NCBI GenBank assembly: GCA_049802875.1
Contig: JBARNH010000007.1
Span: 67,194 to 131,193 of the forward strand
Source of the DNA: Thermoplasmata archaeon
GTDB taxonomy: Archaea; Thermoplasmatota; Thermoplasmata; Lutacidiplasmatales; UBA184
DNA length: 64,000 nucleotides
Direction: 5' to 3'
The notes beneath the pieces are model-generated. The model ran no database searches. It saw only the letters and a program-made list of their open reading frames with translations, and had not been told where the DNA came from. The position numbers and the translations under genes are program-made. Below, one piece after another: positions 20 to 24,725 of the stretch; position 1 is the stretch's first letter; every line of letters begins with the position of its first letter.

Positions 20-1396
20 CTAGGGCGCCTCCACCGAGTACATCCGCCACTCCCCTTCCAAGCCTTTCAGGCTTCGCATCCCACGATCCGAGAACCGCAC
101 GTCAGAGCCGACGGAGAGGTCCCGGACGGTGCCGGAAACCAGGACTTCACCGTCAGCGGCCTCCCGGCTGACCCGGGCGGCGATGTGCACGGCTATGCCC
201 TGAACATCCCCATCCTTGAGGACGCACTCGCCTGTGTGGAGACCGGTGCGGATTTCCAATCCGGCCTTCCGAGCTTGGTCTCGGAGCGTGCACGCGCACC
301 GAACAGCCCGGGTTGGGCCGTCGAAGATCGCGAGGATCCCGTCGCCGGTCGTCTTTATCGTCCTGCCTTGGAAGCGGGCGGTTTCGGTGCGCGCATCCTC
401 CAGGAATCGGTTGAGCAGATCGCCCCAAGCCCGATCCCCCAGGTTGGCCGCCCGACGCGTCGACTCGACTACGTCCGTAAAGAGGACGGTGGTCAGGACG
501 CGGTCGGTCTCGGGGACGTCCGACAAGCCCCGAAGGAAATGGTGGATCTCGTCGAAGACAACCTTCGTCTGCTCGGAGGAGAGCCAGAAGAGATGGTCCT
601 GGCCGGGCGTTTCCACTAGTTGTGCACCCGGGATGTGAGCGGCCAGGTACCGTCCGTGCTCCAAGCTCACGGCTCGGTCGCCTTTGCAGTGCAGAATGAG
701 CGTCGGTACGTGCACGGCCCCGAGTACGGGCCGCACGTCGATCTCCATGTTCATCCGGGCGAGCGCCTCCCCGGACGCGGGGGAGCCACCGTTTCGCACC
801 AGTCGACCCAACCACCGCTTGAATTCGGCATCATCCATCCGACTGGGAGCAATCTCCGAAGTCAGCCGGTCGATATGGGCTGGAGACCCCCATTCCCCAC
901 GATCCCTCCGAATGGCGCTCTCCCACTGTTCTCGGGTGGGAGCCCATGGACACTCCGCTGACCAGACCCCTGTGGCGAGCCCACTCATCAGGATCAGCGC
1001 GCGAGTTCGTTCCGGATAGGTGGCGGCGAATAGTATCGCCACAGAAGCGGCGTCCCGAGCCGCGACGAGGATGGCCCGCTTGGAGTCGACCGCGTCCAGA
1101 ACTGCGCGACCGTCGTCCATGCGCTGTTCGAGAGTGGCTACGCCGACGTCTCGGTCGGACAAGCCGGTTCCCCGCTTGTCGAATACGATCAGTCGCCCGA
1201 GAGAGGCGAGGGCCTGGTGGTAGCGAGCATTCAGGGGATGGTCCCAAGCAACCTCCAGATGGTAGACGCCGCTGCGGGCGAGAAGAAAGTCAACCGGGCC
1301 AGTTCCGAGGACCTGGTAGGCGATATTGACCTCCCCACTCGTCGCGTACTTCACCTCGGGCTGTTCCATGGAAAGGGAGGCGTTCGGGACAGGCAT
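20..1396 (-). CDS. alpha/beta-hydrolase fused to class III adenylate/guanylate cyclase catalytic domain
   Basis: 458-aa ORF. The N-terminal half has an alpha/beta-hydrolase fold (VFDKRGTGLSD, HG). The C-terminal half is a CHD cyclase domain (VLFTDVVEST...KTTGDGILAIF...GLHTGECV...GIAVHIAARV). Confidence 0.75.
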   Translation of the reverse strand: MPVPNASLSMEQPEVKYATSGEVNIAYQVLGTGPVDFLLARSGVYHLEVAWDHPLNARYHQALASLGRLIVFDKRGTGLSDRDVGVATLEQRMDDGRAVLDAVDSKRAILVAARDAASVAILFAATYPERTRALILMSGLATGVWSAECPWAPTREQWESAIRRDRGEWGSPAHIDRLTSEIAPSRMDDAEFKRWLGRLVRNGGSPASGEALARMNMEIDVRPVLGAVHVPTLILHCKGDRAVSLEHGRYLAAHIPGAQLVETPGQDHLFWLSSEQTKVVFDEIHHFLRGLSDVPETDRVLTTVLFTDVVESTRRAANLGDRAWGDLLNRFLEDARTETARFQGRTIKTTGDGILAIFDGPTRAVRCACTLRDQARKAGLEIRTGLHTGECVLKDGDVQGIAVHIAARVSREAADGEVLVSGTVRDLSVGSDVRFSDRGMRSLKGLEGEWRMYSVEAP

Positions 1397-1552
1397 TCCC
1401 GACCAATTTAATTGTAGGTCGGTCTGAACTTGGTGGCGGGCGGATGCGAGGGTCCACCCATGGCCGATTCCGGAACGAAGTGGGACGCGGAGATCGGTCG
1501 GTCTGACCGTGGCTGAGCGTACGCGGGGCCGCCCCCCGACACCGAGCGTAGC

Positions 1553-2929
1553 CTATCGGGCGGGTTGGATGTTCTGGTTGACGTGGAAAAAGTTCTTCGG
1601 GTCGAACTTCTGTTTTAGCGACGCCAATCGCTTGTAGTTTTCGCCGTAGGTCGCCTTGACGCGATCCTGCCCCTCGTCCATCATCATGTTCACGTACGCT
1701 CCCCCCATAGAGAACGGGTGGAGGGCCTCCCAGTAGCCCACGGTCCAGTCCCGGATCCTGTTGGCATTCGCCGGGTCCGGGTCGACGCCGATGATCGTCT
1801 CGGCCCAGCGAGCGTCGCGGTACGCCCACGGAGTGGCGCGCTTTCCGATCTTGGACGCAGCCCCGTCAATCGGGTAGAGGTGCATCGAGGATTGCATCGT
1901 CGGGGTTTTCGAGCCGTGCTGAACGTGCTGCGCAATCGCCTCGTCGCTCAACTCCTTGACAAAGTCCGCCCGCCAGTACCACTGGTGGCCGGGAGGGTAG
2001 AGCCCGTCGAAAGCGCTCTGCAGCGCGGGGAAGGGCGCAGAGTGGAGACCCCAGAGGGCTGGCGCTCCCACTTTCCGGAACGGGGCGAGCAGCCGTTCGG
2101 CCTTCTCGAGAGAGCCGAGGTAGCACCAAACCACGCCGCACATTTTCTTCCCGTGCAGAGACTCCGGAAACGGGGGGGCGGGGGGGACTGTGAGGAAAGC
2201 AAAGAATCCGTTCAGTTCTTCGGGAGCCTTTGGGATGAACTCGCGGTAGAACCGAAGGACCTCTCCCGCCTGGTCGATCGGCCACAGGACCGGACCGGCA
2301 GCGACGGTGTCGACCGGGTGGAGACGTAACGAGAACGATGTCACGACACCGAAGTTTCCCCCACCGCCACGGACGGCCCAGAAGAGGTCGGCGTGATGGT
2401 CCGAGTCGGCCGTGACAAAGCTGCCGTCAGCCAAGACGACGTCCACCTCGAGCAGATTGTCGATCGTAAGACCATGCTTGCGCGTTAGGTGGCCGAGGCC
2501 CCCGCCAAGCGTGAGACCACCAACGCCGGTGGTCGAAATCACTCCCGCCGGCGTAGCCATTCCGAAGGCGTGTGTCGCGTGATCCACGTCCCCCCACTGA
2601 CAGCCACCGGCGGCTTGGACAGTACGAGCGGTCGGGTCCACGCGAACGCCCCGCATGAGGGAGAGGTCGATCATCAGCCCGTTGTCGACACTCGCCAGCC
2701 CGCCGCCGTTGTGGCCAGCGCCTCGCACGGCCACTTCGAGGCCGGTCTCATGCCCGAACTTGACGGCAGAGATCACGTCGGCAACATCTCGGCATCGAGC
2801 AATGACGGCGGGTCGCTTGTCAATCATGGCATTGTACAGCTTTCGCGTCTCCTCGTACTCGAGACTCGTCGGCGTGATCACGGGCCCGCGGAGGCTGCTC
2901 TGCAGGTTCGTCACTGCAGCCGGATCCAT
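1553..2929 (-). CDS. FAD-linked oxidase (PCMH/BBE-like FAD-binding oxidoreductase)
   Basis: The ORF-track ORF is 1553..3169. The likely start is the ATG at 2929 (MDPAAV...), not the upstream extension. FAD-binding PCMH motifs: AVRGAGHNGGGLA, GGLTLGGGLGHL, RGGGGNFGVVT. BBE-like C-terminus. Confidence 0.75.
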   Translation of the reverse strand: MDPAAVTNLQSSLRGPVITPTSLEYEETRKLYNAMIDKRPAVIARCRDVADVISAVKFGHETGLEVAVRGAGHNGGGLASVDNGLMIDLSLMRGVRVDPTARTVQAAGGCQWGDVDHATHAFGMATPAGVISTTGVGGLTLGGGLGHLTRKHGLTIDNLLEVDVVLADGSFVTADSDHHADLFWAVRGGGGNFGVVTSFSLRLHPVDTVAAGPVLWPIDQAGEVLRFYREFIPKAPEELNGFFAFLTVPPAPPFPESLHGKKMCGVVWCYLGSLEKAERLLAPFRKVGAPALWGLHSAPFPALQSAFDGLYPPGHQWYWRADFVKELSDEAIAQHVQHGSKTPTMQSSMHLYPIDGAASKIGKRATPWAYRDARWAETIIGVDPDPANANRIRDWTVGYWEALHPFSMGGAYVNMMMDEGQDRVKATYGENYKRLASLKQKFDPKNFFHVNQNIQPAR

Positions 2930-3224
2930 CGAGGGCCCCAAGAGCGGGAGGGGCACTTGATACCTTGGGTTACATCCGGCACTATTCGGACTCCGGAGGT
3001 TCGCGGCGCGGTGTCTGCAATGGTCATTGCACTTCAGCCCACTTTCGCCGAGAGGGGTAGACCAGTCATTGCTCTGGGTATCCTCGCAGCGGCGTCGGTC
3101 GATCGGATGCGACCTCCAGTTCGTTTGGTGTTGTCCAACTCGAGGGTTTGGTATTCTAGATGCGTTCAATTCCGAGAGCGACTCCGAAAGCGAGGATGTC
3201 GTTGGGCACGGAGGTCAACGCATC

Positions 3225-4841
3225 TTACGAGACGAATCCCAACAAGCACCGAGGATCACCTAGGGACACGGGTGATAACCCCCCTAGCCAGGGCAATGGG
3301 TGTTCGGAGTGGAGGACACACGGAAGGTAAACTAGGTCCAGGACACGCGGCGAACTAGCTCGAAGCTGAGTCGAGGCCTTCGGGTTAGTTGCCCGGACGT
3401 CGTTGACGTAGAGCTGCACGAGCCTCAACGCCTCGGCTTCCGTCGTCAACGGCGGAATGGCCTGTTGCCCAGGAATTGAGTACGACCCCACCCCCTGCAA
3501 AATCGCGGACAACCCTCCGCTCTGACTGATCTTCTGCTCCTTACCCGAAACACGACCATAGTAACCGGTGAGCGGTCGATTTCCACCGCGGGCAGAGAAG
3601 ACGTCTGTCAGGACCCGGAAGCTGCCCGCACCGGCCAGCGTGGTTACGTCGGTGGAGAAAGTGGCGGCAACGAGCAACACCTCGGGAACCTCTTTTCCCC
3701 GCTTCGTCCAGAGGACTCCGGTTTCGAAGGTATACGGAAGCTCCACGACCCAGAAGGGGACGAAAGTTCCGCCTCCGACGTTCAACAACTTAACTGCCCC
3801 TCTCCCCGACTGTGCGGCGCGAACCTCGGCTGCGCGTCGAAATATTTCCTCCTGGAATTTCAGGGACCGAAACGAAGTGGTCCAATCGCTCGGGGCGCTC
3901 CGTGAGAGCCAATCTACCACCGAGCCAAGTCTTTGGAGATACGCCAGTGGATGCGGGGGCACATTCAGAGAGTTTTCGGAGAGGTTGATCATGGAATTAA
4001 CCATCCGGATGACAGTCAGTTCCTGATCGACCGCCGTGGTCATGTACCCTAGTTCGGGGATCGATGACAAAGCTGTTCGCGCCGTTTTTAGTTCGCCCTC
4101 CGCCGCTCCGAGCAGTTTGCGGGGTAGTTCGAATTCCCGCCCTGTTACCAACTGGTCGACCGCCTTGCACTCCTCAGTAAGCCCGGCCAGCCGAGTCGAT
4201 AGGGCCGGCCAACGGCCTATGCTGGCGATTGCCTCCGAAGCCGTTGCGAGATTCTGCGAGATAAGATGAAAACGCTCGGGGTGGTTGCTCTGAGAAAGCT
4301 TCTCGACGACCAGGAGTGATTGATAGCAGGATGCCAGTCCGCTGGCTCGACGGATGAGCTCTCGAGCAGTCTCATCTACGGCCAGAGCTGAAATGGATTG
4401 TACTTTCGCATTGAAAACGGACACGGCTGCCGGGTTTTCACCCGAAGATGGGCGAAGGCTCGATATGAACGGAAGTGAGGCCAGCGGGGACGAGAGAAGT
4501 TGGAAGCAACGAAACCGGTACTGATCGCTTTCAGTGCTAAGGTGGGGCCGAATACCCGTGTTGAAGGCGGCGAGACGTGCCATTGGGTCCACATACTGCG
4601 ATCCCGAGACATCGAGACCCGGTGGAACCGTTTGTCGAACGAACGCTGTGACCTGGGCCATGAAATGGTCGAGAAATTGACGGGCATCGACGATTCTCTG
4701 CGATGTCCCGCAATAATCGCACGTTAGTATCTCTCCCTCGGAACGCGGGGAATAGGGAGCGCCGCATGCACTGCACCTTAGCCTATATTCGGAGAACATC
4801 GCGTCGGGCGCGAGCTGGCTGGTCGCTCCTACTCCCGTCAT
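3225..4841 (-). CDS. hypothetical protein with N-terminal CxxC-N13-CxxC zinc ribbon
   Basis: 538-aa ORF. The N-terminus reads CSACGAPYSPRSEGEILTCDYCGTS. No recognisable catalytic motifs. GC is lower than the surrounding DNA. It lies 33 bp downstream of ORF 4874..5968 on the same strand. Confidence 0.6.
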   Translation of the reverse strand: MTGVGATSQLAPDAMFSEYRLRCSACGAPYSPRSEGEILTCDYCGTSQRIVDARQFLDHFMAQVTAFVRQTVPPGLDVSGSQYVDPMARLAAFNTGIRPHLSTESDQYRFRCFQLLSSPLASLPFISSLRPSSGENPAAVSVFNAKVQSISALAVDETARELIRRASGLASCYQSLLVVEKLSQSNHPERFHLISQNLATASEAIASIGRWPALSTRLAGLTEECKAVDQLVTGREFELPRKLLGAAEGELKTARTALSSIPELGYMTTAVDQELTVIRMVNSMINLSENSLNVPPHPLAYLQRLGSVVDWLSRSAPSDWTTSFRSLKFQEEIFRRAAEVRAAQSGRGAVKLLNVGGGTFVPFWVVELPYTFETGVLWTKRGKEVPEVLLVAATFSTDVTTLAGAGSFRVLTDVFSARGGNRPLTGYYGRVSGKEQKISQSGGLSAILQGVGSYSIPGQQAIPPLTTEAEALRLVQLYVNDVRATNPKASTQLRASSPRVLDLVYLPCVLHSEHPLPWLGGLSPVSLGDPRCLLGFVS

Positions 4842-4873
4842 AGCTTCCTCTCTACGTACTGCAATCCCGGCCC

Positions 4874-5968
4874 CTAAGACCCCGATGCATGCTGCAATCG
4901 ATGCTCCATCGCACGCATTTCACGCATTAGCCGATCTTCAACCTGGCTCACTCGTTGAACTGCGATCCGGTCCGCCAGGTCGCCGATCGCCGAGTAGCAG
5001 CCCTTGCAGACGTAGACATACCGGCCGGACCGATCCATTGAAGGGAGTGGCGACGTGCCATGGAGGTTCAATCCAGTGGCTTCCTTGTCGACTGTGAGTG
5101 AAACGAATTGGACACCATGACCAGTCCCCTCCCTTCCGCACACCCAGCATTTGGCTTTCAACGCAAGATTGCCTGATTTGATCGCCGCACTCTGGGCGTT
5201 GTCATCGTAGCCCGCCTGCGCCCAGTACTGCTGGGCAGTTTGGAAGTGCTCGGCGGCAGTCATTGGGTCGGTGCCTTCGAGAGATTTCCCCAATACCTCG
5301 AACGACAGGGCCATCAATATCGGCGCTTGAAAATCCGCCGGAATGGCTCGATGCTCAAGAAGTTCAGGGAGGTAAAGGACCTTGTTTCCCAACTGGCGAT
5401 ATTCGTCGGCGAGGCTCTGGAGGCCCTGTGCCAAACTCTCGGGATTGCCAGACTGGGAGCGAGCCATGGCCGTCAGGCTGGCGTACCGTGCAGTCAGCTG
5501 CAATTCGTTCGCCAATTCACTAGAACTGGTCCCTCTCGCCCCAAGTTTGAGCTCAATCGTTCCGGGAATGTTTTGGAGCAGCGAAAATAGTGCCATCAGC
5601 GAGGATGGATCCGAGTTTCTCACTGCGCTCGAAAGTAGGTTGGTGTAGGCCGTCGCGACGTTGGCGTACAAGAGGTTACCCTCTCGCGAAAACTTTCGAG
5701 TTGCATCGATGAACTTCTCACTGGCCCTCGAATGATCGCCGCGTCGGGCAAGGTCGAGGCCTTGCTCCAACGTCGCAGCCCCATCCTTGATGATCGGCAC
5801 AGGCAGAGGACCGACCATAGAATCTGTCTCTTCCAGCGTATAAAAGGCACTGAAGCTCAGGTCGTATCGTTCCCTGGGCTGAATCGAGCCCCGGAGGGGT
5901 TCCTGCATCTCGGATGAAGCGGACCACTCTGCTCCCGCGCTGGTGCGGCACGGGCACGATCGGTGCAA
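4874..5968 (-). CDS. hypothetical helical protein with C-terminal CxxC-N35-CxxC zinc ribbon
   Basis: 364-aa ORF. Alternative starts are at 5908 (MQEPL) or 5818 (MVGPL). The body is alpha-helical (TPR-like); the C-terminus has CWVCG...YVCKGC followed by a charged tail. It is probably co-transcribed with 3225..4841. Confidence 0.55.
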   Translation of the reverse strand: MHRSCPCRTSAGAEWSASSEMQEPLRGSIQPRERYDLSFSAFYTLEETDSMVGPLPVPIIKDGAATLEQGLDLARRGDHSRASEKFIDATRKFSREGNLLYANVATAYTNLLSSAVRNSDPSSLMALFSLLQNIPGTIELKLGARGTSSSELANELQLTARYASLTAMARSQSGNPESLAQGLQSLADEYRQLGNKVLYLPELLEHRAIPADFQAPILMALSFEVLGKSLEGTDPMTAAEHFQTAQQYWAQAGYDDNAQSAAIKSGNLALKAKCWVCGREGTGHGVQFVSLTVDKEATGLNLHGTSPLPSMDRSGRYVYVCKGCYSAIGDLADRIAVQRVSQVEDRLMREMRAMEHRLQHASGS

Positions 5969-5982
5969 TCAACCGCGCAGCC
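5961..5982. repeat. palindromic motif copy (degenerate)
   Basis: CGGTGCAATCAACCGCGCAGCC. Confidence 0.3.
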
Positions 5983-9489: not shown

Positions 9490-10593
9490 ATGCGCGCGGT
9501 CTTCGCGGCTGTCATCGCCCTAGCGTTGATCTTGTTGACCGGCTCGACGCTTGTGAGTCCGACGGCGCACGATGCTGCCAGTGTTTATACGAACATGGCC
9601 ACGGTCGCGGGTTTCTCTGGGACTGGGACGAACTCCGCTGAGCTAGACACCTACCCGCTGACCTTCACGGAGAGCGGGCTGCCATCGGGAACGAACTGGT
9701 CGGTTAGTCTCAACGATACAACACGGAGCGCGGCGTTGCCTACGATTACCATCGCGGAACCGAATGGGACCTATCAGCTCTACACTTGGGATGTAAAGGG
9801 TTACACGAGCTACTCCAACGTGACGACTCTCAAGGTCAGTGGCGCTCCGATGGACATCACGGTGTACTACACGCCGCCGCCGGCCGGCTTTTACTTTGTA
9901 ACGTTCGTTCAGACAGGGCTGTCCTTTAACGTCGTTTGGGAGGTCCAGCTTTCCGCTATCATCAACGGGACCACCGAACCTGGCGGATTCGGCCAGAATT
10001 ACTTCGGCCCGACCCATACTCCCTCCGCGCCCTACGGAGTCGAAAACGGCACATTCGCTTGGACGGCCTTCCACCCCAGCGTACCAGAGTACCCCATCCC
10101 CACGTACTTTCCGTTTCCGTCTAGTGGGACGGTGGTCGTTAACGGGTCCAGTGTGCTCATCGACCTCGCGTACCGCTACTCCTATCCGTTCTACTTCGAC
10201 GTAGAGGGACTCCCGACCACCGTCCCATTGACCCTACAGATACTCAACGAAACGACAACCGGAAGCGGCAGCGCCGAGTACCTCCTCATGATTCCGAACG
10301 GCACGTTCGAGTGGAACGCCACTGCGCCAGGGTACCAACCGCAAAACGGAACTATCTCCATTCAGGGCATGCCGGAATTCAACGTCAAGGGGATCTCCTT
10401 CGAGGCACTTCCTTCGGCGACGAACCCGCCGTGGGCATGGGTCGAGATCGGTGTGGTCATCGCGGCAATCGGCGTAGGCGCGGCAGCCTTCCTTTTGAGG
10501 TGGCGCAAGGGCGGCGGTCGAATGCGCGAGGGTCAATCTACACCAATCGCTTCTACTCCACCGCCCTCACAACAGCCGCCGTCTCCCCCGTAG
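9490..10593 (+). CDS. secreted, C-terminally membrane-anchored glycoprotein (hypothetical)
   Basis: Signal peptide MRAVFAAVIALALILLTGS. More than 10 N-x-S/T sequons. A TM helix near the C-terminus (WAWVEIGVVIAAIGVGAAAFLL) is followed by a basic and then Pro-rich tail. Confidence 0.65.
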   Translation: MRAVFAAVIALALILLTGSTLVSPTAHDAASVYTNMATVAGFSGTGTNSAELDTYPLTFTESGLPSGTNWSVSLNDTTRSAALPTITIAEPNGTYQLYTWDVKGYTSYSNVTTLKVSGAPMDITVYYTPPPAGFYFVTFVQTGLSFNVVWEVQLSAIINGTTEPGGFGQNYFGPTHTPSAPYGVENGTFAWTAFHPSVPEYPIPTYFPFPSSGTVVVNGSSVLIDLAYRYSYPFYFDVEGLPTTVPLTLQILNETTTGSGSAEYLLMIPNGTFEWNATAPGYQPQNGTISIQGMPEFNVKGISFEALPSATNPPWAWVEIGVVIAAIGVGAAAFLLRWRKGGGRMREGQSTPIASTPPPSQQPPSPP

Positions 10594-11242: not shown

Positions 11243-12367
11243 GTGCAGCCCTACGATCCACAACGTCCGGCGAGCCCCGGGACGTTTGCCGGACGTCACG
11301 AACTGTTGGAGTTCGCCGGCAATGCTCTGCGGGTCGCCGCGACACTTCATCGCGGGAGCGCGATTCTGCTTTACGGGTACCGGGGGAGTGGTAAGACCTC
11401 GGCCCTCCGAAAGATTCAATCCATTGTTAGAGACACTACCCCACACGGCGTTGTTATTGAAGTTCCACTCCGTGTGCCTAGCACAGAAGCGATGCTGGTC
11501 CACAGCATCGCCGAGATGGTACGTCGCGAAGTGACGTCCCAGGAAAAACTCACAAGCCGGATGAAGAAAGCGCTCGGAAACCTGAGCGCGGTAACGGTTC
11601 TGGGGAGCGGGATCGAGCGAACGAAACCACTACCCTTCACGCCCTCCACACTCCTCACAGTGTGGAAGGACGCACTCCTTGCACTCGGGGATCTGCCCCT
11701 TTTGGCAATCAGCATCGACGACGCCGAGCTTCTCAAGGCCGGCGAAATTGGGATTCTCAAGACGATGGTTGAAACAGACTCTCCAGTGCCGATTCTGATG
11801 GTGGTTGCTGGTGGACCTGAGCTCATCGAGAAACTCTCTCTTCGCGAAGCGTCACCAATCCTTCGGTCGTTCTCGGGTGCAGTCTTTGACATCGGCCAGT
11901 TCTCGGAGGTGGAAACTCTGGAGGCCCTGGAAGCCCCCGTTAAACAGATCAAGGGGACCGGACGGTGGGACGCCTCGGCGGTTAAGGCGATTCACCATCT
12001 GACACACGGATACCCCTACCTGGTGCAATGCTTCGCGGCGGCGGCATATCAAGACAGTCGACGCATCAAGGGTGAAGACGTTCAACGGGCGATCCCTGGA
12101 GCCATGCAACTGGCTTCGAGCTGGCTCGAACGCGAGCTTCCGGAAGCCTCAGACGAAGACATCAGGGCATTCGCCAAAATCGCCACTTCAGGCAAAGTCG
12201 AGTTTCGAAGTTCCGACGCCATCCGGATGGGCATCAATCACATCTATCTCTCAAGGCTCACTACTCAAGGAGTCCTCAAGCGGCTGGCCCGGGGTCATTA
12301 CGAGCTTCGAATGGCGCCCGCGATCGCATACTTTCACGCGCTGAGGCGAGGGCTAAGCGCAGTCTGA
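11243..12367 (+). CDS. AAA+ ATPase of the archaeal-ATPase (Arch_ATPase-like) family with C-terminal winged-helix-like region
   Basis: Walker A YGYRGSGKTSAL. Walker B LLAISIDDAEL. Overall architecture resembles orphan archaeal ATPases. An AT-rich region lies upstream. Confidence 0.65.
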   Translation: MQPYDPQRPASPGTFAGRHELLEFAGNALRVAATLHRGSAILLYGYRGSGKTSALRKIQSIVRDTTPHGVVIEVPLRVPSTEAMLVHSIAEMVRREVTSQEKLTSRMKKALGNLSAVTVLGSGIERTKPLPFTPSTLLTVWKDALLALGDLPLLAISIDDAELLKAGEIGILKTMVETDSPVPILMVVAGGPELIEKLSLREASPILRSFSGAVFDIGQFSEVETLEALEAPVKQIKGTGRWDASAVKAIHHLTHGYPYLVQCFAAAAYQDSRRIKGEDVQRAIPGAMQLASSWLERELPEASDEDIRAFAKIATSGKVEFRSSDAIRMGINHIYLSRLTTQGVLKRLARGHYELRMAPAIAYFHALRRGLSAV

Positions 12368-13570: not shown

Positions 13571-15301
13571 GTGGCTCCCTCGCGTCCCCTAGCCAGCGAC
13601 CCAGCTCGCCATCTCGGCCGGTTCGGGACTGGTACAAAGTTCGCCGCGATCGCTTTCACCTTGCTGCTGATTGTAGTCGGAGCGTGGTGGGGGCTCAGCG
13701 AACGCCCTTCGGCGGGAGCTGGTGGCCAGCCCGTCGGCCCTCCCGCCGCCGCATCTCCGCCCGAAATCAAGCGCTTCCTTTGGGCACCCTCCAGCTTCGA
13801 GGTCAACAATACAACCAAGGGAGTGGTCACCACATCAGCGGGTCAGGGGCCCTACTCGTACGTTTGGTATGGCCTGCCCGACCCGTGTACGTCCCAGAAT
13901 TCATCCAATCTCTCTTGCGCCCCTTCCGTCGCCGGGACCTACAATGTGACGGTCACCGTGAGCAACGTGGCGGGATTCGCGTCAGATTCCGCCGCAATGA
14001 CTGTCAGCCCCTCCTCCCGTAACGTAACGCCGCCGCGTCCCAGTGGGCTGAATGTGACGTTGGTTAGTGGCAGGGAGATCGACGCAGCGGGTCAATCCTA
14101 TTTCGGGGTGGTGGCCCAAACGAACTGCTACAACTGTATCGCGGGGGCGGACGGACTCTATCTGAACGAGACCCCCTACGATGACATTCGGTACGGGCAG
14201 GGGGGCGATTCCTGTGACGTGGTCAACAATTCGTTCTACCAGAACGGAATCGTCGTGGGCCACTGTCCCTTTTCCATCAGCGCCCTCAAGCAATGGTGCT
14301 ACTCCACCACCCCCCACTGCAACTGGTATGTCGGAATGCCGGCCGAGATCAACAACCCGGGTTACGCGGGGTACGAAGCCAAGTGGCTGGTGGATACCAT
14401 GGGTTTTCCTCCCACGTACTGGTCGATCGGGAACGAACCTGAGAGCTATACGAACTGGAACTGTGCTTGGACCACGTGGGCGACCTGCAAGGGTACTCCC
14501 ACCGCGGAACAATGGGCGACGGAGGTCCTAGCGTACTCGCAAGCAATCCGGGCGGTCGTTCCCTCTGCGAAGATCATCGGCATCCAGGCGGTCGGTTCGT
14601 ACTCCACTTTCATTCCAACGCTCGCGGCGTCGCCCGCGGCGAAGTATCTGTACGCCATCGCTTTTCACGATTATCCGCCCCCGGCGGGAAGTAGCGAGAC
14701 CGACTACCTCTCCTCAATCACCGGCCAATACGCGCTGACCAACGAGGTGCAGGAGGTCCGGGCGGGGATCACCGCAGTGAATGCCTCGATGGCGAACCTG
14801 CCCATCTTCGTGGGTGAGTTCAACGGCGGGCCGTGTCCCATCCCTTCTCCCTTTGACCAAGGTTTCCCGGACGTTCTGCTGTACATGGGAACGGTGATCC
14901 AGGGGCTCCAGGCCAATCTGTCCGAGCTCGACTACTTTGCCTTGGCGAATGACGGTTTCTCGTTGGTGGGCACGAATTTCACTCCTTATCCCACCGGAAC
15001 GTGGATGACGGAGATGCACGGAGTTCGGTACGGTGACGCATACGACTACACCATCACCGGGGATGTGCCCGACGTCTGGTCGATCGAGTGGCGGGATGGA
15101 ACAAACGAGACTTTGATGGTGGTCAATGCCAACACGTCCGAACAATTGTCGCTCAGTGTCGGCACGAATTTCACCGAGGGATCCTTGGGCCACACGGTCT
15201 TCTGGAACGGGACCACCAGTGAACCGGAGGTGTCCGCTCTGCCGCTCCCGCAATACTACGCCGTTCCCCCAGAGTCCATTCTTCTAGTGGAGAACTACTG
15301 A
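13571..15301 (+). CDS. membrane-anchored extracellular glycoside-hydrolase-like protein (clan GH-A-like TIM barrel)
   Basis: GTG start. N-terminal signal anchor FAAIAFTLLLIVVGAWWGL. A PKD/Ig-like segment. WSIGNEPE (acid/base NEP motif) and FVGEFNGG (nucleophile GE[FY]). Many N-glycosylation sequons. Confidence 0.55.
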   Translation: MAPSRPLASDPARHLGRFGTGTKFAAIAFTLLLIVVGAWWGLSERPSAGAGGQPVGPPAAASPPEIKRFLWAPSSFEVNNTTKGVVTTSAGQGPYSYVWYGLPDPCTSQNSSNLSCAPSVAGTYNVTVTVSNVAGFASDSAAMTVSPSSRNVTPPRPSGLNVTLVSGREIDAAGQSYFGVVAQTNCYNCIAGADGLYLNETPYDDIRYGQGGDSCDVVNNSFYQNGIVVGHCPFSISALKQWCYSTTPHCNWYVGMPAEINNPGYAGYEAKWLVDTMGFPPTYWSIGNEPESYTNWNCAWTTWATCKGTPTAEQWATEVLAYSQAIRAVVPSAKIIGIQAVGSYSTFIPTLAASPAAKYLYAIAFHDYPPPAGSSETDYLSSITGQYALTNEVQEVRAGITAVNASMANLPIFVGEFNGGPCPIPSPFDQGFPDVLLYMGTVIQGLQANLSELDYFALANDGFSLVGTNFTPYPTGTWMTEMHGVRYGDAYDYTITGDVPDVWSIEWRDGTNETLMVVNANTSEQLSLSVGTNFTEGSLGHTVFWNGTTSEPEVSALPLPQYYAVPPESILLVENY

Positions 15302-15590: not shown

Positions 15591-16313
15591 TCATGCTGGT
15601 TCAATCGAACTGACAGGAATGCAACTCTGGACCATGTTGGCGAAACGCGACCAGCGAGAGAGGTTTGTCCGGCTTTCAGGGCTGCCTTGAAGCAATCTCG
15701 ATAACGTGTCGACATACGTCTTCCGATCGTTGACGCGACTCAGCACCAACTTGAACTTCCTCAGAGCAACTGACTGGAGGAACCGGCCGAACAGCTCACG
15801 GACCTCTCCTAGATTGACTTCCTGACTCATGATGCCGAAGAGATCGGTGAGGTCGTGGGGGCGTCCGGCTAGGAGCTTCGTCGCCCACAGCCCTTCCAAG
15901 CGCACCACATCCACCTGACTGCTTAGGGGCCCGGAGAGAAGCTCGAGGCGAACGGACCGTGGGCTACGAAGCAGCCAATCTCCGGGGATGGTCACGCCCG
16001 AGTCTCTGTCGCGCACCCCGCCTATCATCAGGTCTAGCGTGATCGCCCGATATTCCCATCGTTGAACCTCGAGGCTGGCTCTCCCTTGGTGGAAAACACG
16101 ATGCCCCGGGGCCAACAGTAGGTGGTGAGATTTTAGCCAGTCGGCCCAATCAACCCTACTCCGTTCGGAGACGACGACGTCGACATCAACCGAGTACCGT
16201 GGGGTGCCGTAGGCGGCGACCGCGTAGCCACCCACAACCACGCCATCGAGCTCCGTCGGCCAAGCCTCGAGCAGCCTGGCTACCTGGAGCTCACGCTGAT
16301 CCGCGTCGATCAT
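15591..16313 (-). CDS. abiEii: AbiEii-like nucleotidyltransferase (type IV toxin-antitoxin toxin candidate)
   Basis: The ORF-track ORF is 15591..16454. The likely start is the ATG at 16313 (MIDADQ...). It has the pol-beta NTase motif GG-x13-DVDV (VVGGYAVAAYGTPRYSVDVDVVV). It overlaps the upstream wHTH gene by 23 nt. Confidence 0.55.
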   Translation of the reverse strand: MIDADQRELQVARLLEAWPTELDGVVVGGYAVAAYGTPRYSVDVDVVVSERSRVDWADWLKSHHLLLAPGHRVFHQGRASLEVQRWEYRAITLDLMIGGVRDRDSGVTIPGDWLLRSPRSVRLELLSGPLSSQVDVVRLEGLWATKLLAGRPHDLTDLFGIMSQEVNLGEVRELFGRFLQSVALRKFKLVLSRVNDRKTYVDTLSRLLQGSPESRTNLSRWSRFANMVQSCIPVSSIEPA

Positions 16314-16875
16314 GCACGAGTTCCGCAGCGTTCGCGAAGATGGCGGGGTGCGCACGTATGAGCTCCAACACGTCGGATCTCGGAATGACGGGCTCCCCGG
16401 CGTGAAACGCCACCTTGACTTCCTCGAGAGGCACGAGCTCGATCCGCGGTCCAATTCGTCGCCTCGACCGTCGCGAAAGTCCCTTTGCGCGCAAGTAACG
16501 GTCCCAGCGCTCCAATGAAGTCGCCGGAACCGCGAGCGTGTAAACGCGAACGAAGACGGAAGGCGACGTTCGGTATCGTCCGCCGGTCCACACCTCGACC
16601 GCGTTCGCTCCCGCCCAGGCCTTCGTCCCCGGACCCCTCAGGAGGGTTTCCCGGATGCGTCGCCACTCGAACCGCCTGAGATCTGGCCGCTCCGTTGGGC
16701 CAAGCCGACGGTACCGCCCTCTCCCGACACGTGCGATGTGCCCGCGCGCCTTCAGTTCGCTGAGCACCTTGCCTGCACGGGGATTGGCCACGCGACTCGC
16801 GAAGTCTCGCACAGTGAATTCTGAGATCCCGTACAGATGGTCAATGGCATCGACGTACGCGGTCGCCATGGTCAC
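16291..16875 (-). CDS. abiEi: AbiEi-like winged-helix antitoxin/transcriptional regulator
   Basis: 194 aa with an N-terminal wHTH (FTVRDFASRV..GKVLSELKARGHIARVGRGRY). GTG start at 16875 (ATG at 16869). It sits directly upstream of the NTase gene with overlapping ends. Confidence 0.55.
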   Translation of the reverse strand: MTMATAYVDAIDHLYGISEFTVRDFASRVANPRAGKVLSELKARGHIARVGRGRYRRLGPTERPDLRRFEWRRIRETLLRGPGTKAWAGANAVEVWTGGRYRTSPSVFVRVYTLAVPATSLERWDRYLRAKGLSRRSRRRIGPRIELVPLEEVKVAFHAGEPVIPRSDVLELIRAHPAIFANAAELVHDRRGSA

Positions 16876-16879
16876 TTAT

Positions 16880-16915: not shown

Positions 16916-17023
16916 AGGTCGATTTCTCGCCGGAGGCTGCGCCACGCGATAGCCGAAGTCGAGACGCTCCGATGAGGGCGGCTCACGGGTCGGAAAGGTG
17001 CAACGCCCATTGCGCCCGGGTCT

Positions 17024-17632
17024 CTACTTTCGACGCGAGGTTCCGGCCCTGCCTCGGGATAAGTTCCAGGGAAAAGAACGTTCGGGTTGGTCTCTAGAGG
17101 ACAGACGAGACGCCGCCGTCTCGATCGCTAACTGAGCCGAAGCCACCGAGCCAGAGAAGCGGGGCGCTCGAGCGCTTGCACTCCACATTGCCCAGCTTTC
17201 TGCTTCGAGCGCGTGCGCGCCGGAGCTGGTATGCACAGACCGGGTGACGACCAACAACCGCTGTTCGAGAGCACGTAGAGCGGGTCGGAACCCTTGAGAT
17301 CTCGCCCCAAAGTTGGCTGGCAGGTGGTCGCTCCGTAAGGTTCCATCGCGATCGATTCGGGCCAAGAGTTGTTGTGCAACGACACTGAGTCCGGCCATCT
17401 GCCAGGATGTCCGAGCTTCTCCTACTCTAACTAGCGCCGGCCAGAGTCGCCGATGGACCATTGTGAGCTTTCTGTTCCAGATCCGCAGGACTAGAACGTC
17501 GGGATCGGCCTCGAGAGCCTCAGCCACCTGATAGATCAACCGTCCGGTCGGATGCCCCCACCACGACCCGGAGACGGGCGCGCCCACGACTATCGAGACG
17601 AGAGATGGAACGGTCGAATCCGAAACAGGCAT
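17024..17632 (-). CDS. hypothetical protein
   Basis: The ORF-track ORF is 17024..17875. The start at 17632 (MPVSDS...) is preferred. The longer version overlaps the SRPBCC gene and contains a palindromic-motif half-site at 17756-17780. Confidence 0.4.
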   Translation of the reverse strand: MPVSDSTVPSLVSIVVGAPVSGSWWGHPTGRLIYQVAEALEADPDVLVLRIWNRKLTMVHRRLWPALVRVGEARTSWQMAGLSVVAQQLLARIDRDGTLRSDHLPANFGARSQGFRPALRALEQRLLVVTRSVHTSSGAHALEAESWAMWSASARAPRFSGSVASAQLAIETAASRLSSRDQPERSFPWNLSRGRAGTSRRK

Positions 17633-17813
17633 CAGGCCAATTCTGCGGAGTTCCTTCTTGACACGAGATTGGGCCTGTTGGACGTCACTTGCGACCACAC
17701 CCTCGGAATCGTCGCCTAAGAGATGAAAGATTGGACTCAGATACTTTCGTTCAGGTAGGTGTAACGAGTCTTGCACCCACAACGAAGAGCGGGTGGCGAG
17801 GTGAGCTGAGTAC

Positions 17814-18323
17814 TCACTTGGATCGCTTGGCACTCGATATTGGACGAGCAGGCTGCTTCGTCTTGCCCTTGTCATTCGCGGTAGTGCGGGTTTTGCCTTG
17901 CTTGGAAATCAGTACCCGCAGAGGTCCTTTCACGTAGTATCCCCAAGCGCTCGAACAATCTCCGTAACATTCGACGTCAGGGACCAGGCCGACGTGCGTG
18001 AAACGGAGCTCGGTCTTGTCGCCCTTCTTCGCAATCTCGAAAGTGATCTTGCTCCCGTTCCATTCCGTTTGGTCCTTAACGAAACTGAGCTTGCTGTCTA
18101 GGACCAGCCAGACAACTTTCTTCCCGGGAACGAACTCCGTGATCCTTTGTTTGGTGTAGTGGAGATCCTTGAACTGATATGTCCACACTGCGCCGAGCTT
18201 GTCGGTTGCACCTTTCGCCCCTGGTTCTCCTGTCCACCACCCGCGAACGTCATTGATGGCGCTGAAAACCTCTTCCGGGGTTCGACTCACGGTGTAGGCG
18301 ACACTGAAGTTTGGGCCGCTCAT
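17814..18323 (-). CDS. SRPBCC-family protein (AHSA1/Aha1-like domain)
   Basis: 169 aa: FSVAYTVSRTPEEVFSAINDVRGWW...ITFEIAKKGDKTELRFTH. Typical Aha1-domain pattern. Confidence 0.7.
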   Translation of the reverse strand: MSGPNFSVAYTVSRTPEEVFSAINDVRGWWTGEPGAKGATDKLGAVWTYQFKDLHYTKQRITEFVPGKKVVWLVLDSKLSFVKDQTEWNGSKITFEIAKKGDKTELRFTHVGLVPDVECYGDCSSAWGYYVKGPLRVLISKQGKTRTTANDKGKTKQPARPISSAKRSK

Positions 18324-18382
18324 GGTCTTCCTCCCTATCGCAACTGCAACTTCCGCTCTAGAATAAACTTGACTCGATTATC

Positions 18383-18403
18383 GTTGCAACGCTACTTGCA
18401 CTC
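18383..18403. repeat. GGTGCAA-N6-TTGCACC family palindromic motif
   Basis: GTTGCAACGCTACTTGCACTC. Confidence 0.55.
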
Positions 18404-18456
18404 TCCCGGCGCTCCCTCCCTCTAAGAGAGACGGAGGCCCGAGTCCCCGTGTCGAA

Positions 18457-18858
18457 CTACGCGAAGACTCGGACCGCCCCGTTGGAGACCTCGATTGGAA
18501 GTGGAGTGAGCGGACGACACTCCGTTCGAGCAAAGATCGGCGCCATCGATGCCATCCGTTCCAGAAACTCGGGGGGGAGCTTGTCCATCCCCGCCATCGC
18601 CAAGACCGGTTGCCCACGGACCTCACCGGTGCGCGCATCAAAGACTGCACTGTGTTGGGCGCATTTCACGACTCCGCTCTTGAACGTGCCGAGATCCAGA
18701 GGGGCGTTCATGTGGCCGCAGCGATTCACAAACGCGTGCAGTTCGCCCGACTGATTTAGCACGAGGACGTCTTCACCGCCGGCGCGCCCGTGGGTCATTT
18801 CTCCAGGCTTCAGGGACTTCGCTTCGTTGATTTCGTACCAGGCTTGCACGGAGGTCAC
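18457..18858 (-). CDS. Rieske [2Fe-2S] domain protein
   Basis: CGHMNAPL...CAQHSAVF (CxH-x17-CxxH). GTG start at 18858, chosen by alignment with the paralog 36901..37299 (WYEINEAKSLKPGEM vs WYKAADAKELPQGSM). Confidence 0.7.
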   Translation of the reverse strand: MTSVQAWYEINEAKSLKPGEMTHGRAGGEDVLVLNQSGELHAFVNRCGHMNAPLDLGTFKSGVVKCAQHSAVFDARTGEVRGQPVLAMAGMDKLPPEFLERMASMAPIFARTECRPLTPLPIEVSNGAVRVFA

Positions 18859-18946
18859 CGCTGCAGACCAGTTAATGCTCCTACTTAAAGTTTGAAATAT
18901 AAAGTGCAGCAATCCTTTTGAACCCCTCGCTGATGCGCCCGACTCG

Positions 18947-19270
18947 ATGGTCGGGTCGAGATCGGAGTCCAAGGCTCCCCACTGCGATTTCGAGGCGACG
19001 TTCCGGCTGCTGGGTCAGAAGCACGTCCTCACCATTCTTTGGGCATTGGTGCAAAAGAGTCCCCAGAGGTTCAATGAGCTCCGGGAGAGCGTCGGGGCTA
19101 ACACGGCCACCGTTACGATTCGACTCAGACAGATGCAGAGTCTTGGGCTGGTCCAACGCGCGGTGATCCGCGTGGTCCCGCGTCGTGTGGAGTATCGACT
19201 CACCCCGATGGGGAGTGACCTCGTGCGGATCTTCCGCCCGATCGTCGAATGGCGGGAGAAGTACTCATGA
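18947..19270 (+). CDS. HxlR-family transcriptional regulator
   Basis: CDFEATFRLLGQKHVLTILWAL...YRLTPMG. The stop overlaps the MFS start (ATGA at 19267-19270). Confidence 0.7.
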   Translation: MVGSRSESKAPHCDFEATFRLLGQKHVLTILWALVQKSPQRFNELRESVGANTATVTIRLRQMQSLGLVQRAVIRVVPRRVEYRLTPMGSDLVRIFRPIVEWREKYS

Positions 19271-20790: not shown

Positions 20791-20796
20791 TAGAGT

Positions 20797-20818
20797 AGGT
20801 GCGATCTGACTCGCACCT
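20797..20818. repeat. palindromic motif variant (TGCGA..TCGCA)
   Basis: AGGTGCGATCTGACTCGCACCT, 7 nt after the MFS stop. Confidence 0.5.
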
Positions 20819-20863
20819 CGCGGTGCCGAACCGGTAGTTGGAGGAGTCTCGAAACCACGAGAC

Positions 20864-22828
20864 TTACTTCGGAGCCTGAACGGGTCGGCCGTACGTCGAC
20901 ATGAGCTCCACGAATCTTCGGTCCCTCCTCGCCCCCGCGAACAGGGGGGACATGCGGAGCCGAGCGGCCTGCATCGTATGCGCTTTCGCCGTGGCAAACA
21001 TGACCTCGAAGAAACGGTCGAGATCGCCCAGTGCAAAGAAGATGAACCCGACCGACGATTGGCGCGCGTACCCCTCGCGAGAAGTTTCCTGAAGCCTCTC
21101 GATCATCTTCATGGCCGTCGGACGATCCCCCCGCAGCGCCGACAGCCACCCGCGGCAGAGGAGGGCGAGGTCGCTCGATGGAGCGAGTCGTTCCAACTCC
21201 TTCACCATCAGTTCCGCCTGATCGAAATCTCCCTTCAACATGTAGTACTCGACCATTCCACGGTGGGAATCCAGCGGGGCCTGCTCCATCGTCTTCCTCC
21301 AGTGGGCCAGAGCCTCCTCCAGCCGACCCGAGAAGAAGTAGGCGTTCCCCAGGGATCGGATCGTCTGCGGCGAAAGAGGGTCCAGCCGGTACGCCTCCTC
21401 GCTCTCGGTGGCGTACGCCTCCGCGATTGCGAGGGATCCCGCCAGCGCTGACAATATGATATGCGCCTGAGCCAAGTTGGGATTCAACTCGAGCGCCTTT
21501 CGCACTTCGCGGTCGAGGATGTCGGCCGGCTCGTCGGCCATGAATGCGATCTCGGCCCGTAGCGCATGAGCTTCAGCCAGATACGGCTCAATTGCTATCG
21601 CCTTCTCGGTTGCCGCCCGACCGAGATTGCAGGCGTCGAGCCATGACATAAAATCCTCCCTTCCGAGCTCGATGTACGCACGTGCCGTGCCCGCATAGGC
21701 TCGCGCAAACGTCGGGTCGGTCTGAAGTGCCTTTTTGAAGAATTCGAGAGAACGACGCAACGAATCCTCGTCGGTCCTCCACATTAGCGCCTGGCCCTGA
21801 AGGTAGAGAAGGTAGGCTTCCGTTTCAGTGGGTTTCGCGAGCTCGTGAATCGGGCTCCTCTCCCTCTTCAACCCTCCAGGGAGGGCAGTGGAGACCTTCG
21901 TTGCGATGTCTCCTTGCACAGCGAAGATGTCGTCGAGGTCGTCGTCGTACTTCGCCGTCCAAATATGTTCTTGGGAATCCACGTCGATTACCTGGACCGT
22001 CACACGGATTCGGTTTGCGGATCTGCGAACGCTTCCCTCCACGACCGTCCCAACCCCGAGCTCCTTTCCGATCATGGCTACGGACTTCTCTGTCTTCTTG
22101 TAGCCGATGACCGACGTCCGAGCGATCACCTTCAGGCCCGGCACGAGAGAGAGACTCGCAATCAGTTCCTCGGTGAGCCCATCGGCGAAATATTCGTCCG
22201 AGGGGTCAGGGCTAATGTTAGCGAACGGAAGGACTGCGAGACGGCTTTTGTCGGCGGAACGCGACTCGTCAACGACTTGTTCGCTGTTGTTGTTTATCCA
22301 GGGAAAAAGCACCCGATAGACGTCGACCGGAACTTCGATCCCCTTCAACGCTTTCGGCGGAAGCTTCTCGAACCTGTCAGCAACCTTGGATCGAACCTGA
22401 TCGTAGATGGCGCTGGAAACGCACACTCCACCGGGCTCGGCAAGGGGTTCGATTCGGGCTGCGATGTTCACTGCATCTCCGAGGATGTCGCCCCCGTTTT
22501 GGACCACGTCCCCTAGATGGACTCCGATTCGAATTCGGATGGGTGTCTGACCACCTTCGGAATTCCGGTCGTTTATCCGGCGCTGGATGTTCACCGCGCA
22601 TTGAACGGCCTTAAGCGCGCTGTCGAATTCCACGAGGAAGCCGTCACCCGTCGACTTGATTTCTCGACCCTGGTGGAGTGCGAGCAGTGGTCGAAGCAAT
22701 TCAGCCTGCTGGCGCAACACATCTAGGGTACGACCTTCGTTCGCCTGGGTGGACGCCGTGAACCCAACAGTGTCGGTGAACATGACGGCGGCGAGGCGGC
22801 GGCCCTGTTCCACGAACGTCGGAAGCAC
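20864..22828 (-). CDS. class III adenylate/guanylate cyclase with C-terminal TPR-repeat region
   Basis: N-terminal CHD domain (AVMFTDTVGFT...KSTGDGFLVEF...GVHLGDVV...AVNIAARIE), followed by ~400 aa of TPR-like helical repeats. Confidence 0.75.
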   Translation of the reverse strand: MLPTFVEQGRRLAAVMFTDTVGFTASTQANEGRTLDVLRQQAELLRPLLALHQGREIKSTGDGFLVEFDSALKAVQCAVNIQRRINDRNSEGGQTPIRIRIGVHLGDVVQNGGDILGDAVNIAARIEPLAEPGGVCVSSAIYDQVRSKVADRFEKLPPKALKGIEVPVDVYRVLFPWINNNSEQVVDESRSADKSRLAVLPFANISPDPSDEYFADGLTEELIASLSLVPGLKVIARTSVIGYKKTEKSVAMIGKELGVGTVVEGSVRRSANRIRVTVQVIDVDSQEHIWTAKYDDDLDDIFAVQGDIATKVSTALPGGLKRERSPIHELAKPTETEAYLLYLQGQALMWRTDEDSLRRSLEFFKKALQTDPTFARAYAGTARAYIELGREDFMSWLDACNLGRAATEKAIAIEPYLAEAHALRAEIAFMADEPADILDREVRKALELNPNLAQAHIILSALAGSLAIAEAYATESEEAYRLDPLSPQTIRSLGNAYFFSGRLEEALAHWRKTMEQAPLDSHRGMVEYYMLKGDFDQAELMVKELERLAPSSDLALLCRGWLSALRGDRPTAMKMIERLQETSREGYARQSSVGFIFFALGDLDRFFEVMFATAKAHTMQAARLRMSPLFAGARRDRRFVELMSTYGRPVQAPK

Positions 22829-24722: not shown

Positions 24723-24725
24723 ACG

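Follow-up and report, generated by a model that had tools for sequence, protein, structure and literature searches.

We observed that two genes in a 64-kb stretch of contig JBARNH010000007.1, here named Cyc1 and Cyc2, probably encode soluble class III adenylate cyclases of a Thermoplasmata archaeon. The whole stretch of 64,000 nucleotides is called the window below. Taking the evidence together, we consider it likely that the cyclase homology domain (CHD) of each protein is coupled to a sensor, that both genes have archaeal promoters and that both go back to an old exchange with bacteria. A preliminary description of this DNA had placed two class III cyclases within positions 20 to 22,828, one fused to an alpha/beta hydrolase and the other to tetratricopeptide repeats (TPR). 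Both open reading frames (ORFs) are present, one at either end of this interval, and carry PF00211 (Guanylate_cyc) above its gathering score of 21.9, and the Pfam searches recovered the expected partners, alpha/beta-hydrolase families in Cyc1 and TPR families in Cyc2. The features of the pair are listed here, with approximate residue ranges for the domains.

20..1369, minus strand: Cyc1 gene, 449 aa, alpha/beta-hydrolase fold followed by the CHD; start at Met10 by orthologue alignment
29..490, minus strand: CHD of Cyc1, residues 294-447 (PF00211, 40.3 bits; 1ybt match)
527..1348, minus strand: alpha/beta-hydrolase-fold domain of Cyc1, residues 8-281 (Pfam, Est1 alignment, family alignment)
1406..1411, minus strand: TATA-like box TTAAAT before Cyc1, 42 nt upstream of the ATG
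20864..22813, minus strand: Cyc2 gene, 649 aa, N-terminal CHD, small alpha/beta domain and C-terminal TPR superhelix
20888..21829, minus strand: TPR-like helical repeats of Cyc2, residues 329-642, about 18 helices (Pfam, AlphaFold, Foldseek)
21884..22252, minus strand: middle alpha/beta domain of Cyc2, residues 188-310 (AlphaFold secondary structure)
22313..22801, minus strand: CHD of Cyc2, residues 5-167 (Pfam, PDB 3mr7, model superposition)
22836..22841, minus strand: TATA-like box TTTAAG before Cyc2, 28 to 23 nt upstream of the GTG (11 orthologue upstream regions aligned)

The start codons of both genes were set by comparison with orthologues. The mechanical ORF of Cyc1 (20-1396, minus strand) encodes 458 aa from an upstream ATG that is not conserved; because this upstream start varies among orthologues, we placed the start at Met10 (window position 1369). 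Orthologues of 449 aa, matching the corrected length, exist, and the identical 458-aa form is deposited at NCBI as MGA8302217.1, MGC2359834.1 and MGC2788622.1, all labelled 'Thermoplasmata archaeon'. The mechanical ORF of Cyc2 (20864-22828, minus strand) encodes 654 aa. Its GTG at 22828 varies among orthologues and the GTG at 22813 is conserved, so the latter was taken as the start. NCBI holds the 649-aa form (MGA8303884.1 and MGC2360679.1) and the 654-aa form (MGC2788638.1), again all labelled 'Thermoplasmata archaeon'. Start calls for the Cyc2 family differ between NCBI and JGI, giving 639, 649 or 654 aa.

Both translations contain the CHD hallmarks FTD, K-x-x-GDG and N/H-x-x-A-R. The metal-binding Asp pair, which the preliminary description had singled out for checking, is kept in both CHDs within FTD and GDG, and neither a lost Asp pair nor a bacterial marker gene was found. 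The active site of Cyc2 is complete, with D14 and D57 for the metals, K53 and D109 for adenine specificity, and N116 and R120 for the transition state, and all six residues are invariant in 41 homologues. PF00211 matched residues 13-148 of the 654-aa ORF with 52.7 bits. The best PDB sequence match of this CHD was 3mr7 (E 1.3e-31), and Ma1120 also matched. We compared an AlphaFold model of Cyc2 (mean pLDDT 74) with known folds using Foldseek; target-normalised TM scores are 0.73-0.83 for the superposition of its CHD on 3mr7, Ma1120 and Rv1900c.

The PF00211 match in Cyc1 covers residues 303-456 of the 458-aa ORF, and the best PDB match of its CHD is that of Mycobacterium tuberculosis Rv1900c (1ybt, E 8.7e-39). 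The active-site residues are D299 and D343 for the metals, K339 and D388 for adenine specificity, H395 and R399. In the transition-state pair the Arg is thus present and the Asn is replaced by His, which leaves the N-x-x-x-R feature only partly kept. In an alignment of 35 Cyc1-family sequences, both metal-binding Asp residues and the Arg are invariant, the transition-state position holds a nearly invariant His instead of the canonical Asn, and the archaeal members retain the adenine-specifying Lys and Asp. Near-invariance of the His and its presence in Rv1900c point to a conserved functional variant rather than decay. The Rv1900c enzyme, with the same His, is reportedly an active but slow cyclase. 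The preliminary description had spoken of cAMP or cGMP synthesis and had proposed a check of adenine against guanine specificity. Because the Lys/Asp specificity pair is present in both CHDs, the predicted product is cAMP and not cGMP; only the first part of that claim is retained.

The N-terminal part of Cyc1 is matched by the Pfam families Hydrolase_4, Abhydrolase_6 and Abhydrolase_1. In this domain an Arg occupies the position of the nucleophile Ser: 'VAARDAAS' stands opposite 'GVSMGG' of esterase Est1 (8v16). The Asp and His of the triad are retained, leaving the Ser-Asp-His triad incomplete. The sequence 'ARDAAS' is common to Cyc1 orthologues aligned at ≥75% identity, at the nucleophile position other archaeal Cyc1 paralogue clades carry Gln, Ala, Leu, Thr or Ser, and bacterial relatives mostly retain the Ser. 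Since the nucleophile is missing from Cyc1, serine-hydrolase activity of the domain is unlikely. We suggest that it is probably a sensor or ligand-binding regulatory module, not an enzyme. The preliminary description had proposed that the fusion partners place cyclic nucleotide synthesis under ligand or protein control, and loss of the nucleophile strengthens this sensor reading.

The C-terminal half of Cyc2 is matched by TPR_17, TPR_19, TPR_11 and TPR_2. The pLDDT of this region is mostly 80-96, and Foldseek matches it to consensus TPR proteins and to the TPR domain of OGT. Between the CHD and these repeats, the AlphaFold model has a domain of order beta-alpha-beta-alpha-beta-beta-beta-alpha (pLDDT about 60-79) with the invariant motif 'AVLPFANISPDPxDEYFADGLTEELI'. 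JGI labels Cyc2 relatives 'TolB-like', a label that could not be confirmed, and searching the middle domain by sequence against PDB gave chance-level matches only. Matches to the CHD and the TPR part dominate the Foldseek results, and CadC is the sole match that spans the middle domain. The model and the translation contain no long hydrophobic stretch, a point on which no transmembrane predictor was used. The alpha/beta and TPR half of Cyc2 probably binds a protein or a ligand.

From these features we infer how the two proteins would work. By analogy with solved class III enzymes, the CHDs would form a head-to-tail homodimer with two composite active sites at the interface, in which the two Asp residues would bind metals, Lys and Asp would read adenine, and Asn (His in Cyc1) and Arg would stabilise the transition state. 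The predicted reaction converts ATP to 3',5'-cAMP and pyrophosphate. Each CHD would be coupled to a non-catalytic input module: in Cyc1 an alpha/beta-hydrolase fold minus its nucleophile, probably a small-molecule-binding pseudo-enzyme, and in Cyc2 the small alpha/beta domain plus TPR superhelix, which resembles the CadC sensor and may respond to the bound protein or ligand. Each gene would be transcribed alone from an archaeal TATA-type promoter, Cyc2 without a leader from its GTG and Cyc1 with a short leader, and the two paralogous families would have expanded in the archaeal lineage after an old exchange with soil bacteria.

The promoter sequences are conserved. In 50 of 54 distinct Cyc2-type upstream regions, TTAA, TTTA or TTAT starts at -28/-27, compared with 0-2 of 54 in control windows, and A+T reaches 96-100% at -27..-24. 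Nearly all of these genes (51/54) start with GTG. By its conserved sequence and spacing, the Cyc2 promoter is of the archaeal TATA type, and its predicted mRNA is leaderless. The Cyc1 box is kept as TTAAAT, CTAAAT or TTAAAG in aligned orthologue contigs and its flanks diverge; this alignment contains three distinct other sequences, as the related loci L086 and L087 are identical over the stretch. With the box 42 nt before the ATG, the Cyc1 transcript would have a short leader, some 12-16 nt long. Across 563 genes from the related loci and the window, TATA-like tetramers were 2-3 fold enriched at -31..-27 from candidate starts; cyclase genes, which confound the signal, were left out of this pooled scan. 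The signal is weak in the window alone, and a window-wide A+T profile upstream of longest-ORF starts was uninformative and was set aside because the start calls are unreliable.

The replicon is archaeal and belongs to a Thermoplasmata of soil or peat. This conclusion rests on the labels of the metagenome-assembled genomes (MAGs), on an entirely archaeal set of related loci, on the conserved TATA/leaderless promoters and on a thermopsin gene on an orthologue's contig; the archaeal replicon with TATA/leaderless architecture proposed in the preliminary description is thereby borne out. In a scan for Cyc2 with one genome per GTDB species, all 67 loci, on contigs of up to 1.07 Mb, were archaeal-labelled. 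The main set consists of Thermoplasmata, including MAG UBA184, at 61-89% identity; more distant Thermoplasmata paralogues have 43-53%, and six Nitrososphaerales/Thaumarchaeota loci have 38-47%. Named homologues are labelled Thermoplasmata or 'archaeon' throughout, and five neighbouring window proteins, apart from the cyclases, are also deposited in the same three 'Thermoplasmata archaeon' MAGs, whose contigs measure 170,610, 90,798 and 90,482 bp. The orthologue in MAG UBA184 is 87% identical. UBA184 is a member of the order Lutacidiplasmatales, also called TMEG (PMC9287336), and this degree of identity suggests a host in the UBA184/Lutacidiplasmatales group. The thermopsin gene is on a 14.6-kb contig (L086) whose Cyc1 orthologue is 84% identical, and thermopsin family A5 is the only peptidase family restricted to archaea (PMC3842238). 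Just downstream of the orthologue on that contig (5879-8913) are a CYTH-domain protein and the 617-aa thermopsin. A tRNA-Met near an orthologue in L046 was considered as a domain-of-life marker and rejected; it is an elongator and uninformative.

Both families are large: for each query, more than 7,000 90%-identity clusters at E≤1e-10 were found among the 8,000 candidates examined. CHD genes also form a large group in this lineage. The flanks of the archaeal loci (about 0.85 Mb) contain 17 additional CHD genes, and several MAGs have three or four CHD genes within ≤44 kb of available sequence; L031 (MAG JOPF068) carries four in 22 kb (1-21935) and L018 carries three. This density sample is biased by gene clustering, and any per-genome count is an extrapolation. 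In L089 (472-4202), a Cyc1-type and a Cyc2-type gene are divergent neighbours. The preliminary description had called such domains uncommon in archaea, which holds for archaea overall and fails for this Thermoplasmata lineage, where they are abundant, and for soil Nitrososphaerales. It had also pointed to two CHD genes within 23 kb; given the counts in the flanks, this spacing is ordinary for the lineage.

To describe the history of the families, we built a neighbour-joining tree of the Cyc1 type (47 sequences, 441 columns, 100 bootstraps). A single clade with 100% bootstrap holds every archaeal-labelled sequence, and this clade contains at least five well-supported paralogue subclades, each from several MAGs. 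Outside it are labelled Alpha- and Betaproteobacteria, Mycobacterium, Dormibacteraceae and a Bacteroidota member. Cyc2-type genes also form several paralogue clades, with at least five counted for each type. The CHD expansion in Thermoplasmata is lineage-specific. Thaumarchaeal Cyc2-type genes, all of which keep the catalytic residues, group together with 100% support within the diversity of Thermoplasmata, which suggests transfer between archaeal phyla in soil. Full-length Cyc2-type genes are found in the Nitrososphaerales/Thaumarchaeota loci L055, L058, L059, L061, L064 and L069.

Among bacterial proteins, those of Microvirga, Bradyrhizobium, Paraburkholderia and Sinorhizobium match 99% of the length of Cyc1 at 48-51% identity, and a Dormibacteraceae protein has 46%. 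The more distant archaeal paralogues of Cyc1 are about equally close to it. Cyc2 aligns with rhizobial plasmid cyclases at 34-37% identity, the alignments covering 84-93% of the protein. Most simply, each architecture would reflect a single old exchange with bacteria, followed by duplications in Thermoplasmata and onward transfer to Nitrososphaerales. The bacterial origin raised in the preliminary description is plausible from the distribution and the trees, and a direction from bacteria to archaea, which the trees themselves do not give, would follow from the breadth of the bacterial distribution.

Cyc1 and Cyc2 belong to known families, their architectures are known from bacteria, and what sets them apart is their distribution in an archaeal lineage. 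NCBI already names both 'adenylate/guanylate cyclase domain-containing protein'. Rv1900c/LipJ of M. tuberculosis (PDB 1ybt/1ybu) has the same two-domain order as Cyc1, an alpha/beta hydrolase followed by a CHD, and shares the His in place of the transition-state Asn together with the same Asp and Arg. However, it has Asn where Cyc1 keeps the adenine-specifying Lys, and Cyc1 differs further by its Arg at the nucleophile position, its archaeal host and its TATA-type promoter. Hydrolase-CHD proteins of soil bacteria are colinear with 99% of Cyc1 at 46-51% identity and share its CHD motifs, including the His. Examples are encoded by a Microvirga ossetica plasmid, Bradyrhizobium japonicum (WP_304501501.1), Sinorhizobium meliloti pSymA and Candidatus Dormibacteraceae. 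Most bacterial members differ from Cyc1 in keeping Ser within an 'SEGG' nucleophile elbow, and at the position of the Cyc1 specificity Lys several carry Asn, Asp or Arg. To our knowledge, none of these soil-bacterial proteins has been functionally characterised.

For Cyc2, the closest parallels in domain order (CHD, TolB-like domain, TPR) are rhizobial plasmid cyclases such as those of Rhizobium leguminosarum (WP_283187719.1) and Bradyrhizobium (WP_247564416.1), which differ by low identity and bacterial hosts and whose functions are uncharacterised. Genes of this type are present in 512 plasmid records. S. meliloti CyaD1, CyaD2 and CyaK were considered as CHD-TPR relatives and rejected, as they are described as a CHASE2-domain pathway (PMC13001267), and a deletion of the CyaD1 CHASE2 domain is used in another study (PMC5498481). 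Ruegeria (Silicibacter) pomeroyi 3mr7 and Mycobacterium avium Ma1120 (4wp3 and related entries), which gave the best fold matches at TM scores of about 0.8, have the same canonical Lys/Asp/Asn/Arg set as the Cyc2 CHD but are isolated bacterial catalytic domains that lack its TPR sensor half. The periplasmic sensor domain of E. coli CadC (3ly7/3ly8/3lya), an alpha/beta subdomain followed by a helical bundle, resembles the middle and TPR parts of the Cyc2 model (about 330 columns, E about 2e-7, TM 0.41, identity 13-14%). In contrast to Cyc2, which has no predicted membrane segment, the CadC domain is periplasmic and is attached to a ToxR-type DNA-binding domain. As judged from the model, the likeness appears to be one of fold only and not of membership. 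The archaeal 'class IV' CYTH proteins, once annotated as adenylate cyclases and earlier candidates for archaeal cAMP synthesis, have a fold unrelated to those of Cyc1 and Cyc2, and the one from Sulfolobus has turned out to be a triphosphatase instead of a cyclase (PMC8233210, PMC10249747).

We considered four other explanations, which concern either the origin of the genes or the function of the proteins. If the contig were bacterial and mis-binned into archaeal MAGs, the cyclases would be ordinary bacterial genes. Full-length bacterial homologues do exist, and the window lacks an rRNA, a tRNA and a universal marker, with an Orc1/Cdc6-like match far under threshold. But more than 40 archaeal MAGs, assembled independently in different studies, contain orthologues, on contigs that reach 1.07 Mb, and 0 of 67 loci are bacterial-labelled. 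The TATA box at -27/-28 before a leaderless start in 50/54 genes, the archaea-restricted thermopsin (PMC3842238) and the archaeal clade with 100% bootstrap apart from all labelled bacteria likewise speak for an archaeal contig. We regard mis-binning as close to refuted and as extremely improbable. It is also decidedly unlikely, to a lesser degree, that the families are of ancient archaeal origin or moved from archaea into bacteria. The archaeal sequences do form one clan in the unrooted tree, with deep and diverse clades. However, the Cyc1 architecture comprises 4,572 50%-identity clusters (E≤1e-30), and those of its labelled members that are not archaeal come from Alpha- and Betaproteobacteria, Actinomycetota, Bacteroidota and Dormibacterota. 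Archaeal members were found only in soil or peat Thermoplasmata and, for Cyc2, in Nitrososphaerales, where they nest in the Thermoplasmata diversity, and early censuses of 20 archaeal genomes contained no class III cyclase (PMC1183210).

With respect to function, one or both proteins might not be adenylate cyclases in vivo, acting instead as weak pseudo-cyclase scaffolds or making cGMP or cCMP/cUMP. The His of Cyc1 would fit this, genomes with many paralogues often include degenerate copies, and a cAMP receptor was not found nearby. Yet the six canonical residues of Cyc2 are invariant in its 41 homologues and in every paralogue clade, including the thaumarchaeal ones, the Lys/Asp pair of both proteins is the one typical of ATP-using enzymes and not the Glu/Cys type of guanylate cyclases, and the Cyc1 His is itself a nearly invariant family feature that Rv1900c shares. 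We therefore think it unlikely that adenylate cyclase activity is absent. The remaining explanation is anti-virus signalling of the Pycsar type, in which a cyclic nucleotide made upon infection activates a neighbouring effector. Pycsar does use class III-like cyclases, an AbiE-like pair lies between Cyc1 and Cyc2, and in L088 (3473-4411) a protein of the metallo-beta-lactamase (MBL) fold with a faint match to Apyc1, the Anti-Pycsar cyclic-nucleotide phosphodiesterase, is encoded two genes upstream of the Cyc1 orthologue. However, neither the window nor six other contexts contain an adjacent cyclic nucleotide monophosphate (cNMP)-binding effector, in a survey that did not include the PADLOC library, and the neighbourhoods are unconserved. 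The architectures are those of sensory cyclases (LipJ-like; CHD plus TPR), and the specificity residues indicate ATP, with none of the pyrimidine-selective changes. We judge a Pycsar role very improbable.

Several points weigh against reading Cyc1 and Cyc2 as sensor-coupled archaeal adenylate cyclases. The taxonomic labels are MAG labels, and the 64-kb window contains no tRNA, rRNA or Rfam family and no ribosomal or universal marker gene. Cyc1 has His at the usual class III transition-state Asn, as Rv1900c does. Enzymatic activity is something we infer from residues, and that the proteins dimerise, that the partner domains act as sensors and that transfer ran in a given direction are likewise proposals rather than observations. 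Model confidence is only moderate in the middle domain of Cyc2. An insensitive search of the window and of 1.18 Mb of related loci recovered neither a cAMP receptor nor a phosphodiesterase; none of the roughly 60 window ORFs matches a cNMP-binding family, and an equally insensitive tblastn search of the 1.18 Mb with E. coli CRP was empty. Finally, the neighbour-joining trees include few taxon-labelled bacteria and have an unresolved backbone and arbitrary rooting.

cAMP has been measured in archaea, and a 2023 review states that none of the archaeal proteins for its synthesis, degradation or binding has been characterised (PMC10249747). In a 2005 census, 20 archaeal genomes yielded no class III cyclase (PMC1183210), and COG2114 was noted in Thaumarchaeota in 2022 (PMC9289680). 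Cyclases and cAMP are absent from the main text of the paper that describes Lutacidiplasmatales, and we found no description of a class III cyclase expansion in this lineage in the searchable literature. Their intact catalytic residues, archaeal promoters and dozens of paralogues make Cyc1 and Cyc2 concrete candidates for archaeal cAMP synthesis that can be cloned. They offer an entry point for finding archaeal cAMP effectors and document the exchange of signalling genes among soil bacteria, Thermoplasmata and Nitrososphaerales. At the same time, they are ordinary members of known families with generic NCBI names, from uncultured organisms. More tentatively, cAMP might be a major second messenger in soil and peat Thermoplasmata of the UBA184/Lutacidiplasmatales type, with tens of cyclase paralogues per genome, some of them passed to soil Nitrososphaerales; we hold this broader proposal to be possible, with the balance slightly against it. 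If true, the repertoire would be comparable to that of rhizobia or mycobacteria and unmatched in other archaea, with diversified sensor modules that include a clade of pseudo-hydrolase receptors. The two proteins would then be the first tractable archaeal cAMP synthases, and a set of archaeal cAMP receptors would be implied.

Within the 64-kb window, a phmmer scan of all six-frame ORFs yielded no CHD besides those of Cyc1 and Cyc2. The two domains share 39% identity, and Cyc1 and Cyc2 are therefore not recent duplicates. The 19.5 kb between them encode a BBE/FAD oxidase, beta-propeller proteins, the AbiE-like pair, a Rieske protein and an MFS transporter, which are unrelated cargo. In relatives, no conserved neighbourhood was found around the cyclase genes, except for a BBE oxidase by Cyc1 in one case and occasional cyclase-cyclase adjacency. 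As the cargo is unrelated and the context is not shared, we regard Cyc1 and Cyc2 as two separate monocistronic genes and not as one locus. The BBE/FAD-linked oxidase adjoins Cyc1 in the window (1553-3169) and its orthologue in L088 (7528-8904).

The AbiE-like pair consists of an AAA_16/AAA_22 ATPase with a C-terminal AbiEi-type winged helix (11243-12367, plus strand) and, about 3 kb away, an AbiEii-type nucleotidyltransferase (15591-16454, minus strand). It may be a toxin-antitoxin or defence pair. An Orc1/Cdc6 identity for the ATPase was rejected (21 bits against a cut-off of 181). Pairs of an ArsR-type helix-turn-helix protein and an AHSA1/SRPBCC protein are repeated in the window (24330-25253, plus strand; 42009-42805, minus strand) and also occur in L001 and L003; similar ArsR/AHSA1-type pairs recur beside Cyc2 orthologues in other MAGs. 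A metal-uptake operon at 53330-57449 (plus strand) encodes a DtxR-like repressor, ZnuA, an ABC ATPase and an ABC-3 permease fused to DUF973, and a DtxR/ZnuA operon of this kind also adjoins the Cyc1 orthologue in L089. The 672-aa ORF at 53878-55896 (minus strand) was discarded as a spurious antisense ORF over the znu-type operon.

Six large ORFs of 283-576 aa have no Pfam or NCBIfam match and a coding-like codon-position GC; they may encode lineage-specific proteins. Their positions are as follows.

3225-4841: unmatched large ORF
4874-5968: unmatched large ORF
9490-10593: unmatched large ORF
13571-15301: unmatched large ORF
17024-17875: unmatched large ORF
49318-50574: unmatched large ORF

At 44515-46803 (plus strand), the window encodes a protein of 762 aa with immunoglobulin-like CHU_C-associated and SprB-type repeats, which is probably a cell-surface protein.

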